DNA of 34,923 nucleotides, taken from UHGV virus genome UHGV-0335080; one strand, written 5' to 3'. This document shows positions 6,974 to 11,027 of the stretch, one piece after another. The translations under genes were made by a program, and so were the position numbers. This DNA comes from a virus. Each line of letters begins with the position of its first letter. Within the stretch, counting starts at the first letter, position 1. The notes below the pieces were generated by a model that was not told where the DNA came from, did not search any database, and saw only the letters and a list, made by a program, of their open reading frames with translations.

Positions 6974-7101
6974 GGTTTCCTCAGCTGACTTATATGTTCT
7001 GCTATATAGCGAGTCTCAGAAGTGTTTTCATATTAAGACTGTTTCCGCAATGATTGATAAAAATGTTCGCATGTACCTTGAGGGGCGAAGCGGCGATTAT
7101 G

Positions 7102-7605
7102 TCACCATTGGTATTGGTTCTTCCGTAGAAGAGCTTCGCGAGATAAGGGGCAAACTTGTTGAGATGCGTCATGGTGTTGCTGCTCCTCACTTTTTGGTTG
7201 CTCCGGAGGAGTAACCTCACCAGTTAACAGCCACATCGCATCGCAGCCAAGAATATTTGCCAGTGGGATAAGCATACTGATAGTTGGTTCATACTCTCCG
7301 CTCTCCCACTGGATGATAATTTCTTCATCGAGATCGAGCAGCCTGGCGAGTTCGGCGGTTGTTAAGCCGCAGGCTTCGCGTTGGGTGCGAAGACGGTTGT
7401 TGATTGCAGAATTTTTGTTCTGTAAAAGCATTGCTGACGATAGCTTTCTGGATATGCTATTTGTCATATCCCATGCCAGTCCTGCGCATGACTCTATATC
7501 GCTAGAGAGCGTAGCATCAGGTGTTGCTTTTGCTATTAGTGTAATGAGGCTGCCGAGGTTTTTCAGTTCTTCGAGACAGTCAAGAGTTGTAGCTTTATTG
7601 ATCAT
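7102..7605 (-). CDS. HTH (XRE-family) domain protein, 167 aa, first gene downstream of cI
   Basis: Central HTH motif (LRTQREACGLTTAELARLLDLDEEIIIQWESGEYEPTISMLIPLANILGCDAMWLLTGE); GAGGT RBS; start overlapped by operator-like inverted repeat. Confidence 0.7.
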   Translation of the reverse strand: MINKATTLDCLEELKNLGSLITLIAKATPDATLSSDIESCAGLAWDMTNSISRKLSSAMLLQNKNSAINNRLRTQREACGLTTAELARLLDLDEEIIIQWESGEYEPTISMLIPLANILGCDAMWLLTGEVTPPEQPKSEEQQHHDASQQVCPLSREALLRKNQYQW

Positions 7606-7610
7606 GAGAT

Positions 7611-7690
7611 GATACCTCAGTTACGAACTTTGTTTTATGGTAACTAAGGTATCAAGGCGTGGCAAGTAATTTTTGATACTTTGGTTTCTT
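7611..7690. promoter_or_regulatory. Operator-like site cluster (OL-like) downstream of cI, with candidate leftward promoter
   Basis: TGATACCTCAGTTAC (7611-7625) and its inverted copy GTAACTAAGGTATCA (7642-7656), plus TGATACTTTGGTTTC (7676-7690); possible TTGCCA-N17-TACCAT on minus strand. Confidence 0.4.
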
Positions 7691-7708
7691 TTTGTGTTTT
7701 GTGTCTGG

Positions 7709-8365
7709 TCAGAAAATATCCCATCTGGCATCAACCACAACACCTACTATTTCGCAATCATTGTCCATTTCTATGATTGGATATTGTGGATTAAGGGGCT
7801 TTAGAAACGCCTTTCCCATGTCAGAAATATATTTTTTGAATGTTGCTTCATTGGTGGATTTTTTTCTGGCGATGACGTAACACCCTGAAAAAACTTCTTT
7901 ATCTGGGTTGACAAGGATCGACATTCCTTCAGGAAATGTTATTCCTACGGGCGAAGTCATTGAGTCTCCGTGCACTTCCAGCCAGAACCCCCTCTCACCA
8001 GCGTATTTTACAGAATGCCTCCAATTATCCTGATCATACATGTTGTAGTCATCACCAGAAGTTGCGAATAATCCTGCCTGAACCCAGTTAATTACAGGGT
8101 AAGAGTGTGCTGTGTCTCTCTGTGGGCAGCTCTTAACATTATTTTCCCAATGCTTATCTTTTTCATCTCCGTTCTGAAGCCACTGCGGTGAACACCGCAG
8201 TGCAGCTGCAACTTTAAAAAGGGTGTCACCGTTGAAACTTTTTGTAAGGCCTTGCTCGGCTTTACTTATTGCAACTCTGGTGACCCCAGCTTTTTTAGCC
8301 AACGCATCTTGTGTTAACCCAGCTTTTTGCCGTGCGTTGATGAGACGTTCACCTAAAGACTTCAT
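7709..8365 (-). CDS. cI: CI-like prophage repressor: N-terminal HTH plus C-terminal LexA-like S24 autopeptidase domain
   Basis: HTH_XRE motif (LTQDALAKKAGVTRVAISKAEQG); Ala-Gly candidate cleavage site (VQAGL); Ser in GDSM and downstream Lys (ARKK); GAGGAG RBS; track ORF trimmed to MKSLGERL. Confidence 0.9.
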   Translation of the reverse strand: MKSLGERLINARQKAGLTQDALAKKAGVTRVAISKAEQGLTKSFNGDTLFKVAAALRCSPQWLQNGDEKDKHWENNVKSCPQRDTAHSYPVINWVQAGLFATSGDDYNMYDQDNWRHSVKYAGERGFWLEVHGDSMTSPVGITFPEGMSILVNPDKEVFSGCYVIARKKSTNEATFKKYISDMGKAFLKPLNPQYPIIEMDNDCEIVGVVVDARWDIF

Positions 8366-8386
8366 TTTTCTTCTCCTCTCATGGCT

Positions 8387-8462
8387 GTTGATACTAAAGT
8401 AACAGAATTTCTTGATACTTTGGGTTCCTGTGGTTAACATCGTTGGATAACAAAGTATCTGG
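8387..8462. promoter_or_regulatory. Operator-like site cluster (OR-like) between cI and rightward genes, with candidate PR
   Basis: TGATACTAAAGTAAC (8391-8405), TGATACTTTGGGTTC (8414-8428), inverted AGATACTTTGTTATC (8446-8460); TTGATA-N17-TAACAT rightward promoter-like at 8412-8439. Confidence 0.45.
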
Positions 8463-8476
8463 TGTGAGACTAAAGA

Positions 8477-8704
8477 ATGACCCTTTATGAAATATTAAAA
8501 ATTCAATTTAAAACCAATGCCGCTATTGGTCGCAGGTTCCCAAAGAAAGGAAGGCCTCGTGGCAGTCAAGGTGTTGGAAAGTGGAAAACGCGAGGTGTTC
8601 CGGAGGATGTTGCCATTCTTTGTCATCTGGATCCGAGCATTCCATATACACACCCAAGTCTAGCGAATACAGAAGATGACAAGCCCACAGGAGACCAACA
8701 ATGA
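8477..8704 (+). CDS. Uncertain small basic ORF (75 aa) in the Cro position; may be noncoding
   Basis: Stop overlaps Rha start (ATGA), but weak RBS, no HTH and low-complexity basic composition; an alternative 48-codon ORF exists in another frame. Confidence 0.25.
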   Translation: MTLYEILKIQFKTNAAIGRRFPKKGRPRGSQGVGKWKTRGVPEDVAILCHLDPSIPYTHPSLANTEDDKPTGDQQ

Positions 8705-9408
8705 ACACCGCAATTTTTAACGGCAAAGCATCCATGACCAGCGTTGAGATCGCAGAGCTGGTGGGAAGCCGACCAGATAGTGTTAAGAGAACTATTGAAA
8801 CACTGGCTAAAAAGGGAATCATCCAATTTCCACAGACTGTGGAAATTGAGAATAAACAATCACTTGGGCCTCGCCGATTTTCTAGCGCGTATGTATTCGA
8901 AGGTGAACGAGGTAAGCGCGACAGCATCATTGTCGTCGCACAGCTCTGTCCTGAATTCACAGCTCGCCTGGTAGATCGCTGGCGCGAACTGGAAGAACAG
9001 ATCCGTAAGCCAATGAGCGAAATCGAAATGGTTGCCGCGATGGCTCTTGAAGCCGTTCGCCAACAGAAACGGATCACTCAGGTGGAAGAAAAAGTCAGCC
9101 ACGTTGCTGAAACAGTCGAGCAAATTAAAAAGGGCACTATTCGTGAGGGCTATGCCGGATATCGCCAACTGAAAGCAAAAACCGGTTTGTCAGATGATAA
9201 ATGCCGCAATCTGGTGAACGCCTATCAAATTCCTACAGACACACATGAGTTCATGACGCCGGACGGATTGTTGTCACGTCGCGCAATTGTTGCTGTGGAA
9301 CCGTTTATGGCTGCTTTTTATCGGGTTATGGAGGAAGCAGAACCGCGAGGGACTCGCTGGTATCACCCGAAAATGGGGTTATTTCAGGTTATTGGTTGGC
9401 AGCGGTGA
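8701..9408 (+). CDS. rha: Rha-family phage regulatory / antirepressor-like protein
   Basis: N-terminal motif MTSVEIAELVGSRPDSVKRTIETLAKKG typical of Phage_pRha; GGAGACC RBS. Confidence 0.7.
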   Translation: MNTAIFNGKASMTSVEIAELVGSRPDSVKRTIETLAKKGIIQFPQTVEIENKQSLGPRRFSSAYVFEGERGKRDSIIVVAQLCPEFTARLVDRWRELEEQIRKPMSEIEMVAAMALEAVRQQKRITQVEEKVSHVAETVEQIKKGTIREGYAGYRQLKAKTGLSDDKCRNLVNAYQIPTDTHEFMTPDGLLSRRAIVAVEPFMAAFYRVMEEAEPRGTRWYHPKMGLFQVIGWQR

Positions 9409-9435
9409 AAAAAAGCCGGGAGTAACCCGGCTCAC
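9409..9435 (-). terminator. Possible intrinsic terminator in minus-strand orientation
   Basis: GCCGGG-agtaa-CCCGGC hairpin (9415-9431) preceded on the plus strand by A7, i.e. followed by U7 on the minus strand. Confidence 0.3.
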
Positions 9436-9516
9436 TCAACATCAATAACGGGGAGCTGTTTCGCATAAAACGGCTCCGAAACATCCAAGAACAGTTCTAA
9501 AGATATCAGCAGCTAT

Positions 9517-10179
9517 ATGATCATTTCAAGACCAAATATTGATTCTGCAATTTCGGGACGTTACACTGTCTCCGCACCTTATAAAGCGGGTGCCGGGATT
9601 GGCGTCCTGAAATTGTCAACGGCGATGTATGACGCGCCAGCGTCTTTTTTATCGTCCGCATTTGCTCACATCCAGATTATGGTGGGCTGGGCGGGGGCAC
9701 CGAAAGGTGCGCCGGTCTCCGTTGACGCCGGTTACGCCAACCCCGTCCAGTTCACCACCAGTGAAATTGGCGTTTCCGGTGGTGGAAGTTTTTCACTGTC
9801 AACGGAGGCTGCCATCATGGCTACTGTCCTAACTTCCCCATTCCTAAAAATCGAAGTCGTCAACGGCAAGGCCGTTATTTTCTCCCTGCATGTTGCCTGC
9901 CATTTCAAGCGCATGCACCAGAACATCGTTGACAAAATCGAGTATCTGAACTGCTCACGCGAGTTTTTTACCCGCAATTTCATACCGGGTACTTATCACA
10001 TCTACGGTGACTCCCTGCGTGGTTATTACATCACCCTTGATGGTCTGATGATGCTTCAGCTTGGGTTAAGTCTGCGCACAATGCGGTACTACGAGAGCTG
10101 TATTGAAGCATTCCATGAGGCTGAAACCGTCCAGGGTCACTCCGCGTTCCGTCGTAATCAACGGGAGGTGCACCTATGA
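9517..10179 (+). CDS. Rha-domain protein with unrecognised Gly-rich N-terminal domain (220 aa)
   Basis: C-terminal Rha-like segment (KIEVVNGKAVIFSLHVACHFKRMHQNIVDKIEYL...); N-terminal about 100 aa paralogous to next gene. Confidence 0.65.
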   Translation: MIISRPNIDSAISGRYTVSAPYKAGAGIGVLKLSTAMYDAPASFLSSAFAHIQIMVGWAGAPKGAPVSVDAGYANPVQFTTSEIGVSGGGSFSLSTEAAIMATVLTSPFLKIEVVNGKAVIFSLHVACHFKRMHQNIVDKIEYLNCSREFFTRNFIPGTYHIYGDSLRGYYITLDGLMMLQLGLSLRTMRYYESCIEAFHEAETVQGHSAFRRNQREVHL

Positions 10180-11027
10180 TCCGCCACCAGCATATTGATT
10201 CTGCAATTCCGGGACGTTACACTGCTCAGGCACCTTATAAAGCGGGTGCCGGGCGTGGAAACCCGAAATTCAATATAGAGCACAACCGCGCTCATGCGGT
10301 TTTTTCGTGTCATGAGCATCGTTACACCCAAATTATGGTGGGGCGTGCAGGGCCAACTTCGGTTGGGCCGGGTTCTATGTTGACCGGTATTTCCACCCCT
10401 GTACGTCTCACCACCTATATGGTCGTGGAAAGCCTTGGTGGTGAGTTCATTGAATTCAACATAGGGGCTGTCACCATGACTACTCTCCCAACCCAATCTC
10501 ACCCTGAAATCACGATTATCAATGGTCGCGTTGTCACCACATCTCTTGCAGTAGCTAATTACTTTACTAAACGGCATGAGCGGGTTTTAGATAGAATTAG
10601 AAACCTCGAATGTTCCGCTGAATTTACTGAACACAATTTTGTGTTAAGTGAATACACCGACGCATCAGGCCGCAAACTCCCTTGTTACCAAATCACCCGC
10701 GACGGTTTTGCGTTTCTTGCCATGGGCTTCACTGGTAAACGTGCTGCCCAGTTCAAAGAGGCATACATCAACGCCTTTAACCTGATGGAGAAGAGTTTAT
10801 CAGGTGCCGATGCGTCTGATATGTCAGCTGTCGCACGAAACGCCAGAGGCGTATACCTGCATTTGCGTGAAATCCATCAAATCTGGACAAGCCAGCTTTA
10901 TCCAATGCTTAAGGCCGTTGAATCTCCGCTGGCTAGCAAACTGTACGACCGTGTTGGTGATGCTGTTTTTGGCGCTGCACTTGTTGATTCCAGGCTGAAT
11001 GGTTCTGACAAGGAGGTTCGCCCATGA
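10176..11027 (+). CDS. Rha-domain protein, paralog of upstream gene (283 aa)
   Basis: Rha-like segment (ITIINGRVVTTSLAVANYFTKRHERVLDRIRNLECSAEF...YQITRDGFAFLAMGFTGKRAAQFKEAYINAF); shared N-terminal domain; ATGA-coupled start with GGAGGTG RBS. Confidence 0.7.
   Translation: MIRHQHIDSAIPGRYTAQAPYKAGAGRGNPKFNIEHNRAHAVFSCHEHRYTQIMVGRAGPTSVGPGSMLTGISTPVRLTTYMVVESLGGEFIEFNIGAVTMTTLPTQSHPEITIINGRVVTTSLAVANYFTKRHERVLDRIRNLECSAEFTEHNFVLSEYTDASGRKLPCYQITRDGFAFLAMGFTGKRAAQFKEAYINAFNLMEKSLSGADASDMSAVARNARGVYLHLREIHQIWTSQLYPMLKAVESPLASKLYDRVGDAVFGAALVDSRLNGSDKEVRP

Follow-up and report, generated by a model that had tools for sequence, protein, structure and literature searches.

In phage P22, the immC region has three operators between the divergent repressor and cro genes (OR1-3). 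Three more (OL1-3) lie beyond the 3′ end of the repressor gene and control the leftward promoter. These operators are 18 bp long and of the ATTTAAG type, with which the sequence of a P22-like locus, L087, is consistent. In phage lambda, cooperativity and looping are mediated by the C-terminal domain of CI. We analyzed the region around the cI gene of virus genome UHGV-0335080 (the window is the whole 34.9-kb stretch). Most probably it serves a phiP27-type E. coli prophage as its immunity region, distantly homologous to the P22 immC/lambda imm module and with both OL/OR sites and a Cro.

Judged from its sequence, the nearest characterized system is P22 immC. Here too, cI and the putative cro are divergent, with three operator-like sites between them and three more beyond the 3′ end of the repressor gene, where they would control a leftward promoter. 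Over its full length, cI shares 47% identity with a P22-C2-like repressor that has P22 Cro as its divergent neighbor. The 75-aa product of ORF 8477-8704 is related to P22 Cro by transitive homology and matches it in predicted fold. The differences are several. The operator is 16 bp long with the half-site GAWAC, not of the P22 type; the OR centers are 24 and 32 bp apart, compared with about 25 and 23 in L087; and the −10 of PR falls between sites B and C. The Cro has an insertion of five residues in the HTH turn, and the first leftward gene encodes an HTH protein rather than a gene-24/N-type antiterminator.

The likeness to lambda lies in the C-terminal domain of cI, which is homologous to that of lambda CI (3bdn, 8.9e-34), in the three plus three operators and in the overlap of the OR3-position site with the putative cI promoter. 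Unlike lambda Cro, which is alpha+beta, the predicted Cro fold here is all-alpha (P22/N15 type). With no rex genes between them, OL and OR are separated by just about 0.7 kb. The cI mRNA would carry a leader with a strong Shine-Dalgarno (SD) sequence, whereas that of lambda is leaderless.

The L10-L11-L12 region of phiP27, an Stx2e phage, is 93% identical in DNA and shares all six sites. L12 is the orthologue of ORF 8477-8704; an extra gene, L13, separates it from the Rha/Ant gene in phiP27. No description of the phiP27 operators was found in the literature searched, which included reviews and papers on Stx phages. The Cro proteins of the telomere phages N15, PY54 and phiKO2 share only 12% identity with the 75-aa protein, and their operators, repressor (CB) and phage type differ.

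The Repressor Gene and its Neighbors

The genes considered are the following.

7102-7605, minus strand: first leftward (PL) gene, 167-aa HTH_3 protein, phrog_4739; the "CII-like regulator" phrog_4836 was matched too
7709-8365, minus strand: cI repressor, 218 aa, N-terminal HTH_3 and C-terminal S24 self-cleaving domain
8477-8704, plus strand: proposed cro-equivalent gene, 75 aa, phrog_4749, predicted all-alpha Cro fold
8701-9408, plus strand: Rha/Ant-like second rightward gene, Rha-like by its PGAP name

The cI protein has the Cro/C1 (XRE)-type HTH and S24 domains of a lambdoid CI-type prophage repressor (HTH_3, PF01381, 1.6e-14, residues 10-63; Peptidase_S24, PF00717, 3.2e-22). Besides the lambda repressor, its matches in the PDB include structures of the lambda CI C-terminal domain (1e-24 to 1e-34), the P22 C2 N-terminal domain (1e-8) and the N-terminal domains of the 434 repressor and Cro. 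An Ala-Gly cleavage site and a Ser/Lys dyad are represented by the conserved motifs VQAG (the AG cleavage motif), GDSM and FKKY, and cleavage is predicted. We infer that cI binds multiple palindromic operators overlapping divergent early promoters.

Operator-Like Sites

Six pseudo-palindromes of 16 bp, with the consensus TGATAC-N4-GTWWC-N, lie on both sides of cI (S1-S3 at 7610-7689 and S4-S6 at 8389-8460).

S1, 7610-7625: TGATACCTCAGTTACG, OL side, closest to the leftward ORF; 12.9 bits, the weakest of the six
S2, 7639-7654, minus strand: TGATACCTTAGTTACC, OL side, between the −35 and −10 of candidate PL; 18.6 bits
S3, 7674-7689: TGATACTTTGGTTTCT, OL side, just upstream of the PL −35; 22.7 bits, the highest score of the window
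S4 (site A, OR3 position), 8389-8404: TGATACTAAAGTAACA, adjoins the cI RBS; 19.1 bits
S5 (site B, OR2 position), 8413-8428: TGATACTTTGGGTTCC, left half overlaps the PR −35 TTGATA; 20.3 bits
S6 (site C, OR1 position), 8445-8460, minus strand: AGATACTTTGTTATCC, just downstream of the PR −10; 15.8 bits

An earlier note on this DNA, made from the sequence alone, had reported six related sites around cI. All were found, 1-3 bp from where it had placed them. The pattern TGATACNNNNGTWWC with at most one mismatch gave nine matches in the window against 1.3 expected, a number reached in 0 of 100 shuffles. Six of the nine lie in the two intergenic regions and cover five of the six sites. S6 is not caught by this pattern but was recovered by a weight matrix, which was trained solely on sites from six other genera and scanned across the whole window. 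With this matrix S3, S5, S4, S2 and S6 are the top five distinct sites of the window (15.8-22.7 bits), and S1 is comparable to one background match at 13.7 bits. Six matches reach 14 bits or more, compared with 0.49 in shuffles. Each side of the repressor gene thus carries three related dyad-symmetric sites, above chance frequency. A putative seventh site overlapping the start of cro (TGAGACTAAAGAATGA, 8465-8480) scored 7-10 bits; it is unconserved in Stx1_14040 and Stx2_12E129_yecE and was rejected as an operator.

Candidate Promoters

A promoter scan gave the first two of the following candidates.

PR, 8412-8440, plus strand: −35 TTGATA (8412-8417), 17-bp spacer, −10 TAACAT (8435-8440)
PL, 7637-7665, minus strand: −35 TTGCCA (7665-7660), 17-bp spacer, −10 TACCAT (7642-7637)
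PRM, 8396-8404, minus strand: extended −10 TGTTACTTT within S4, about 24 nt upstream of the cI ATG, ahead of the SD AGAGGAGAAG

The consensus-like hexamers of PR and PL overlap S5 and S2 and are conserved, and S6 covers the expected PR transcription start. Transcription is predicted to begin near 8447 (plus strand) from PR, near 7630 (minus strand) from PL and near 8389 (minus strand) from PRM. An arrangement like that of PL is present in other genera too, for example TTGACA-17-TACATT in Photorhabdus. On its minus strand S4 holds a conserved extended −10-like motif, TGnTACTTT, and TGnTA(C/T)(T/A)TT is kept in all three specificity groups of the repressor and its sites. This motif may be the −10 of the cI promoter PRM; a −35 match for it is absent. 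S5 would cover the PRM −35 region (−24 to −39 of the candidate) instead of sitting beside it, unlike the activating geometry in lambda.

The Left-Hand Sites and a Potential RNA Hairpin

S1 overlaps the SD sequence of the leftward ORF (GAGG, minus strand), and 19 bp separate the end of S3 from the stop codon of cI. The claim that the OL-like cluster abuts this stop codon is correct for the window, but the arrangement is confined to the E. coli lineage. In Raoultella, Yersinia, Phytobacter, Photorhabdus, Pantoea, Xenorhabdus and Providencia an intrinsic terminator lies between cI and S3; the E. coli lineage lacks it. S3 is conserved across genera, 34-36 bp from S2, and S2 is kept as TGATACYTTAGTTAC in all group-1 loci. 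S1 occurs in the E. coli lineage and Photorhabdus/Xenorhabdus but is missing from Raoultella, Yersinia, Phytobacter and Pantoea.

S1 and S2 also form the inverted repeat that had been described earlier, whose 15-nt arms are 93% complementary and 15 nt apart. Leftward transcripts that read through it could fold as follows.

7610-7654, minus strand: potential RNA hairpin, 15-bp stem and 15-nt loop

The pair might therefore act mainly or additionally at the RNA level. The hairpin in read-through RNA would bury the SD of ORF 7102-7605 and leave it untranslated in lysogens. Transcripts from PL, beginning within the loop, would avoid this. The hairpin would take the place, in the E. coli lineage, of the intrinsic terminator that follows cI in other genera, and the absence of that terminator there fits the idea. 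The predicted energy is −20 kcal/mol (z = −5.1; 0 of 200 shuffles are as good), the GAGG sits in the 3′ arm, and the likeness of S1 to S2 (14/16) is above that of either to the remaining sites. Where the arms differ (in the window, L077/L084 and L078-80), the change is in each case a transition leaving a G.U pair in the leftward RNA. However, a pair of pseudo-palindromic operators in opposite orientation is automatically an inverted repeat. We sought covariation in 67 viral contigs and found only these G.U-compatible transitions and one C.A break (in L033). No true compensatory change was among them, and three G.U-compatible differences would arise by chance about once in eight times. The hairpin is unconserved outside the E. 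coli lineage; in Photorhabdus/Xenorhabdus, where S1 is present, the arms match only about 11/14. Read-through from cI is itself putative. On balance we consider an RNA-level role doubtful. A role for S1/S2 as an intrinsic terminator was rejected because the stem is not followed by a U-tract.

A Probable Cro Counterpart

Contrary to the earlier note, which had seen no HTH and no recognizable Cro here, ORF 8477-8704 appears from its homologies and predicted structure to be a divergent P22 Cro homologue with an atypical HTH, and it would be expected to bind the operators. The ORF is conserved and under purifying selection, with changes predominantly at the third codon position (for example, 34 vs 11 and 8). 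Its RBS is weak, as had been claimed: GAGA in the window and GAGG/AGG-like in relatives. A search of the interval for a conserved small ORF or an sRNA, which had been suggested, returned the ORF and no sRNA; the latter was rejected for the absence of an Rfam match and the clear codon-position bias of the substitutions. The Rha-like gene, which had been noted too, is the second rightward gene. It lies behind cro, and its start codon shares bases with the stop codon of cro (ATGA, 8701-8704).

The 75-aa protein is the product of the first gene of the rightward operon, within an exchangeable immunity cassette. In every locus examined, genes of its family and a cI-type repressor gene are transcribed divergently: 10 of 10 genome loci, three phage records, locus L086 and two loci of relatives that lack the insertion. 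A mosaic swap with Stx2_14040 spans 7390-8700 of the window. It begins inside ORF 7102-7605 (breakpoint at about 7390) and ends exactly at the stop of ORF 8477-8704, whose slot is filled in Stx2_14040 by a PF15943 YdaS/Cro protein. The phiP27 orthologue L12 was treated as Cro12 (cro12) by Smith et al. (2012), who designed primers on MTLYEI...GKQSEV of L12 (PMC3430580). L12 and all 11 copies in phage records are annotated as hypothetical in databases.

Searches of Pfam, NCBIfam and PDB sequences, with the single sequence and with a profile, gave only phrog_4749 (unknown function) and chance matches such as Nup358. No Pfam or NCBIfam model directly matched the window protein or any of the 28 family members. 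These models miss it because of a basic insertion of five residues (22-26, the P-K-K-G-R region) in the HTH turn, which makes the link between HTH helices 2 and 3 nine residues long, compared with the canonical turn of 3-4 residues. Across phrog_4749 the insertion follows the K/R-rich pattern P-x-x-G-x-x-R, reminiscent of the GRP core of AT-hooks.

An alignment of the family profile with that of insertion-less relatives (hhalign) gave a probability of 99.7% (E 8e-26) with a five-residue gap in the HTH turn, where these relatives have GV instead. Their profile matches P22 Cro (1rzs) at 3.6e-5; against PF14549 (Pfam P22_Cro) one of them, P0054, scored 31.2 bits (cutoff 30.2) and the others fell just below the cutoff. 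The direct alignment of the family profile with P22-like Cro was non-significant (probability 2.8%), so the assignment rests on transitive homology, fold and position. Among 48,164 PDB chains the best matches to the predicted all-alpha fold were N15, Xfaso-1 and P22 Cro. Foldseek matches were individually non-significant. The helix-3 residues Q31, V33, G34, K35 and W36 are invariant and align to the SQW helix of P22 Cro.

It is rather unlikely that phrog_4749 is a distinct Cro subtype whose insertion touches the operator center and that, in addition, the S1/S2 pair of the E. coli lineage doubles as a translation-blocking RNA hairpin. If true, the insertion would add contacts, possibly in the minor groove, at the A/T-rich center of the 16-bp operators.

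We also considered that ORF 8477-8704 encodes a small protein with another early role (an anti-repressor or modulator) rather than a DNA-binding Cro. The lytic-side repressor function would then be missing, or it would come from the C4/isrK RNA module and the Rha/Ant-like proteins encoded downstream; two copies of the C4 antisense RNA and a pair of Rha/Ant-like genes do lie just downstream. The missing direct family match would agree with this, as would the interrupted HTH turn: a connection of nine residues is not usual and might change canonical docking or prevent it. The POU-specific domain, however, is a lambda-repressor-like helical domain whose HTH link is also longer than the canonical turn, and its docking is conventional. 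POU domains of Pit-1 and Oct, which are eukaryotic and unrelated in sequence, are among the non-significant fold matches. The recognition helix of the protein is nearly unchanged across the three operator variants described below, unlike that of cI, and co-recognition of identical sites by Cro is thus putative. Set against this, the ORF sits precisely where a recognized Cro sits, with the same cassette boundary, the top fold matches are three Cro proteins, the transitive homology to P22 Cro is significant and the invariant residues of helix 3 fall on the SQW helix. We therefore regard a role other than Cro as improbable.

Conservation and Specificity Variants

A comparison of homologous immunity regions, proposed in the earlier note, showed the repeats to be conserved in 10 loci of seven genera and in 67 viral contigs of close relatives, in which substitutions lie mainly in the spacers. 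The spacers drift, but in loci ranging from E. coli to Photorhabdus, Providencia and Proteus the sites are conserved, as are the promoter hexamers that overlap them and the spacing within OR. Sites A and B are always 24 bp apart and sites B and C 32 bp, Providencia/Proteus and L086 included. In a footprint of the 10 loci the mean majority is 8.81/10 in site columns and 5.67/10 in non-site columns; outside the sites, the only invariant columns are the T of the PR −35 and the TA...T of the −10. Within the sites, the S4 columns are invariant or nearly so and TTGATACTTTGG of S5 is invariant. In Stx2_12E129_yecE, S6 is the perfect palindrome GATACTTAAGTATC.

Three half-site variants were observed. 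GATAC pairs with the cI helix VTRVAISKAEQG, GAAAC/GAAAG with VSRVTISKIELG and TAAAC with VSRMAISKIEMG. The two variant half-sites track changes in cI helix 3, in just two independent events. That the repeats are chance similarities or derive from promoters (TTGATA-like −35 boxes), with no repressor-binding role, is already disfavoured and barely credible: the left half of S5 does coincide with a −35 box and S1 scores no better than one background match, but the sites are enriched over shuffles, their full 16 bp and their spacing are kept across genera, even for S3 and S6, which overlap no promoter hexamer, and the half-site changes follow the repressor helix. The claimed layout of two clusters like OL and OR holds at this level of evidence, through the conserved sigma-70-like hexamers that the sites overlap, the phylogenetic footprint and the joint change of half-site and cI helix.

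Proposed Switch and its Distribution

From the sites, their conservation and spacing, the gene order, the homologies and the predicted fold, all found in the analysis, we infer binding, promoter activity, site preference and cooperativity. Dimers of the LexA-like, self-cleaving cI would bind the 16-bp operators through their GAWAC half-sites. To the right of cI, S4-S6 would cover the divergent promoters. With S5 over the −35 of PR and S6 over its start, cI would shut off the rightward operon (cro, the Rha-like gene and onward). S4 holds the only conserved candidate −10 of the cI promoter, and we propose that cI at high levels thereby represses its own synthesis. To the left of cI, S1-S3 would bracket PL and shut off the leftward operon. 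After SOS-induced cleavage of cI, the 75-aa Cro counterpart would be the first product of PR and would be expected to act on the same operators, with S4 predicted to be bound first, lowering cI synthesis and early transcription.

The region is an immunity switch of the ordinary kind in a little-studied version, and it leaves the general picture of lambdoid switches unchanged. For the phiP27-type immunity module it provides an operator map that can be tested, together with a Cro assignment. The three half-site variants, the rigid OR geometry of 24/32 bp and the Cro whose HTH turn is interrupted make up a small natural series, useful for studying the co-evolution of repressor, Cro and operator specificity. 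The components of the switch are relevant to Stx-phage biology and immunity typing because the release of Shiga toxin depends on prophage induction. The phiP27-type module is present, as prophages, in 381 of 5,426 complete E. coli genomes (about 7%), and its carriers include Stx1a, Stx2a and Stx2e converting phages.

Operator-like sites around cI

The module around the repressor gene cI is a P22/lambda-type immunity switch, functionally and by descent. The OL/OR layout proposed in the earlier note stands, with tripartite OR and OL, a self-cleaving cI and a divergent cro. For the whole module, we infer DNA binding, promoter usage and cooperativity. The genes annotated by PGAP and the operator-like sites (S1–S3 on the OL side, S4–S6 on the OR side) are as follows.

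7102–7605 (−), helix-turn-helix protein
7709–8365 (−), 'LexA family protein' (cI)
8477–8704 (+), hypothetical protein (ORF75)
8701–9408 (+), Rha family regulator
7610–7625, S1
7639–7654 (−), S2
7674–7689, S3
8389–8404, S4 (site A, OR3 position)
8413–8428, S5 (site B, OR2 position)
8445–8460 (−), S6 (site C, OR1 position)

All six repeats described earlier were found, 1–3 bp from their original coordinates. As 16-mers they are pseudo-palindromes, TGATAC-N4-GTWWC-N, with the half-site GAWAC. The sequence TGATACNNNNGTWWC at ≤1 mismatch has 9 matches in the window against 1.3 expected, a count reached in 0 of 100 shuffles. For a non-circular test, a weight matrix made solely from sites in six other genera was scanned over the whole 34.9-kb window. 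The best five distinct matches were S3, S5, S4, S2 and S6 (15.8–22.7 bits), and six matches scored 14 bits or more, compared with 0.49 in shuffles. S1 is the weakest of the six sites at 12.9 bits; one background match scored 13.7 bits. The matrix from other genera and the enrichment over shuffles therefore confirm the six-site observation. A seventh operator-like sequence over the cro start codon (TGAGACTAAAGAATGA, 8465–8480) is weak (7–10 bits) and probably arose by chance, since the Stx1a/Stx2a phage relatives do not conserve it.

Comparison with related immunity regions, a check suggested by the earlier note, found the sites conserved in ten loci from seven genera. The OR blocks of these loci align without gaps, with a mean majority per column of 8.81/10 in the sites versus 5.67/10 outside them. 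Columns outside the sites are invariant only at the T needed to complete TTGATA and at the TA...T of a −10 box. The start-to-start distance is 24 bp from A to B and 32 bp from B to C in every locus. Among 67 close viral contigs, substitutions fall mostly in spacers and the S1/S2 loop. Two lineages keep the geometry with an altered half-site: GAAAC/GAAAG in Providencia/Proteus, and TAAAC in contig L086, including the perfect palindrome TAAACTTTAGTTTA. The recognition helix of cI is VTRVAISKAEQG in the GATAC group, VSRVTISKIELG in Providencia/Proteus and VSRMAISKIEMG in L086. Half-site and helix are altered together in both lineages, the direction expected for real operators, although these are two independent events only.

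Candidate promoters and the S1/S2 inverted repeat

Rightward (PR) and leftward (PL) candidates came from a consensus promoter scan, and a cI promoter candidate from conservation.

8412–8440 (+), candidate PR, TTGATA-17-TAACAT
7665–7637 (−), candidate PL, TTGCCA-17-TACCAT
8404–8396 (−), candidate cI promoter, extended −10-like TGnTACTTT inside S4

In candidate PR, the left half of S5 serves as the −35 element, and S6 falls over the start site. In candidate PL, S2 separates the hexamers, S3 lies immediately upstream, and the leader contains S1. Other genera show both arrangements too, for example TTGACA-17-TACATT in Photorhabdus. The TGnTACTTT motif is the only conserved candidate for the promoter of cI itself; it reads TGATATATT in Providencia/Proteus and TGATACTTT in L086. 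The resulting cI leader would be ~24 nt long, with a strong SD (AGAGGAGAAG). No −35 match was found for this candidate, and S5 would lie at about −24 to −39 relative to it, so cI at S5 could activate or repress it.

S1 and S2 form an inverted repeat (15-nt arms, 93% complementarity, 15-nt gap), and S1 contains the SD (GAGG) of ORF 7102–7605. A leftward RNA with both arms is predicted to fold into a 15-bp hairpin (−20 kcal/mol, z = −5.1). PL transcription is predicted to start within the loop, so only cI read-through transcripts would form the hairpin. That the arms act as an RNA hairpin on such transcripts is an unlikely, secondary possibility. It would fit the lack of an intrinsic terminator between cI and S3 in the E. 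coli lineage, whereas seven other genera have one, and the arm differences, which are all G.U-compatible on the leftward strand. However, the arms show no compensatory pair, one contig has a C.A break, and Photorhabdus and Xenorhabdus have S1 without good arm complementarity. The repeat arises anyway from two opposite-orientation copies of one operator. The terminators in Raoultella, Yersinia, Phytobacter, Photorhabdus, Pantoea, Xenorhabdus and Providencia (L006–L013) are strong, with a GC hairpin and a T-run (cI strand), and lie after the cI stop and before the S3 equivalent.

Identity of Cro

The evidence points to ORF75, a 75-aa protein, as Cro. The earlier view that no Cro is recognizable fails on coding signal, position, cassette swap, transitive homology to P22 Cro and the published name 'Cro12'. 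ORF75 has no Pfam or NCBIfam match and belongs to phrog_4749, of unknown function. Homologues with 63–95% identity occur in Klebsiella/Raoultella, Yersinia, Kosakonia, Citrobacter, Photorhabdus, Xenorhabdus, Providencia, Proteus, Pantoea and Salmonella. The suggested search of 8477–8704 for a conserved small ORF yielded a real gene, as it differs from relatives mainly at third codon positions (for example, 11 first-position, 8 second-position and 34 third-position changes versus Raoultella). Its weak RBS is confirmed in the window but is lineage-specific; relatives carry GAGG/AGG.

In 10/10 genome loci compared, the homologue is divergent from a 218–246-aa cI-like gene ~100 bp away. ORF75 is always the divergent partner of a cI-type gene, as are distant relatives without the insertion in the turn. 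Homology between the window and the mosaic relative Stx2_14040 breaks off at ~7390, within the leftward gene 7102–7605, and picks up again precisely at 8701, where Rha starts and ORF75 stops. The exchanged cassette encodes a different cI and a protein passing Pfam YdaS_toxin/Cro (PF15943, 37.2 bits versus a cutoff of 30). A classical imm cassette behaves in this way.

When 1.84 billion representatives were searched with a profile, only 16 relatives came up. The distant ones among them have a canonical HTH turn (…IAxxFGVTRxAVxKW…) and align to the ORF75 family with 99.7% probability (E 8e-26) and a single 5-residue gap in the turn. Their profile matches P22 Cro at 3.6e-5, and several are at or near the PF14549 P22_Cro threshold. 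The phiP27 orthologue was already listed as 'Cro12' by Smith et al. 2012 (PMC3430580), whose degenerate primers encode MTLYEI… and …GKQSEV.

Helices 2 and 3 of the HTH are linked by 9 residues (F-P-K-K-G-R-P-R-G) instead of the usual 3–4, which is why family models miss this Cro. The link is the only new feature here, and modestly so. All members of the family share residues P22, G25 and R28. Helix 3 keeps Q31, V33, G34, K35 and W36 unchanged even in all three operator variants, so Cro may recognize the A-AC core that the half-sites have in common, or its preferences may not be exactly those of cI.

Comparison with known switches

cI has HTH_3 (1.6e-14) and Peptidase_S24 (3.2e-22) domains, with conserved VQAG, GDSM and FKKY motifs. 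It matches full-length lambda CI at 8.9e-34, mainly via the C-terminal domain, and the N-terminal domain of P22 C2 at 1e-8. It shares 47% identity (E 5e-69) with a repressor from IMG/VR contigs; the divergent neighbor of that repressor is essentially P22 Cro (1rzs at 2.9e-32), making P22 immC the closest characterized relative. Unlike P22 and lambda, the module has 16-bp operators with GAWAC half-sites, OR spacings of 24 bp and 32 bp, the PR −10 falling between sites B and C, a cI mRNA that is probably leadered, and a Cro with an interrupted HTH turn. In the E. coli/phiP27 lineage its OL also comes within 19 bp (S3) of the cI stop; the earlier placement of OL directly at the stop is apt there, but in other genera a terminator intervenes. 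The result is useful mainly for correcting the annotation of phiP27-type Stx phages and for giving them an operator map that can be tested.

Distribution and neighboring genes

Prophages in several E. coli chromosomes match the region 7000–9500 at 100% identity, and related sequence occurs in 381/5,426 complete genomes. Among phage records, identity is 93% to the Stx2e phage phiP27 and 84–86% to a group of phages that convert to Stx1a or Stx2a production.

The first leftward gene, 7102–7605 (−), appears to be a fusion of an N-terminal domain and an HTH_3 domain. The N-terminal part exists on its own in other genera, as a ~70-aa protein (for example L006 1854–2069; shared motif ...IE.C.G.AWDM.NS...), and the HTH_3 part also matches the 'CII-like regulator' phrog_4836. 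phiP27 (L002) has an extra leftward gene, L13 (3000–3671, −, 223 aa), between the ORF75 orthologue L12 and the Rha/Ant gene; it is not in the window or the Stx1a/Stx2a relatives. Several genera (L009–L015, L085) have a non-Rha gene directly downstream of the cro equivalent, encoding a conserved ~90–110-aa protein that overlaps the cro 3′ end (…Y.EVYQ..W..EP..YRK.N.AR..AN.RLR…). This may be the cII-position gene of the module.

Just downstream of cro–Rha, at 9574–9762 and 10230–10418 (+), are two tandem copies of an isrK-like sRNA (Rfam RF01394, 62 bits each), each followed by a C4 antisense RNA (RF01695, 81–82 bits). They lie inside the PGAP 'ash family protein' (9517–10179) and the 5′ part of a 'Rha family phage regulatory protein' (10176–11027). 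The pair looks like a duplicated P1/P7 immI-type (c4 RNA-antirepressor) or Gifsy-1 isrK-type module. If so, it would add another layer of immunity, and most of the 'ash' ORF sequence may be non-coding. A full-length match to the gammaproteobacterial sRNA STnc100 lies at 17098–17303 (+) (RF02076, 165 bits).
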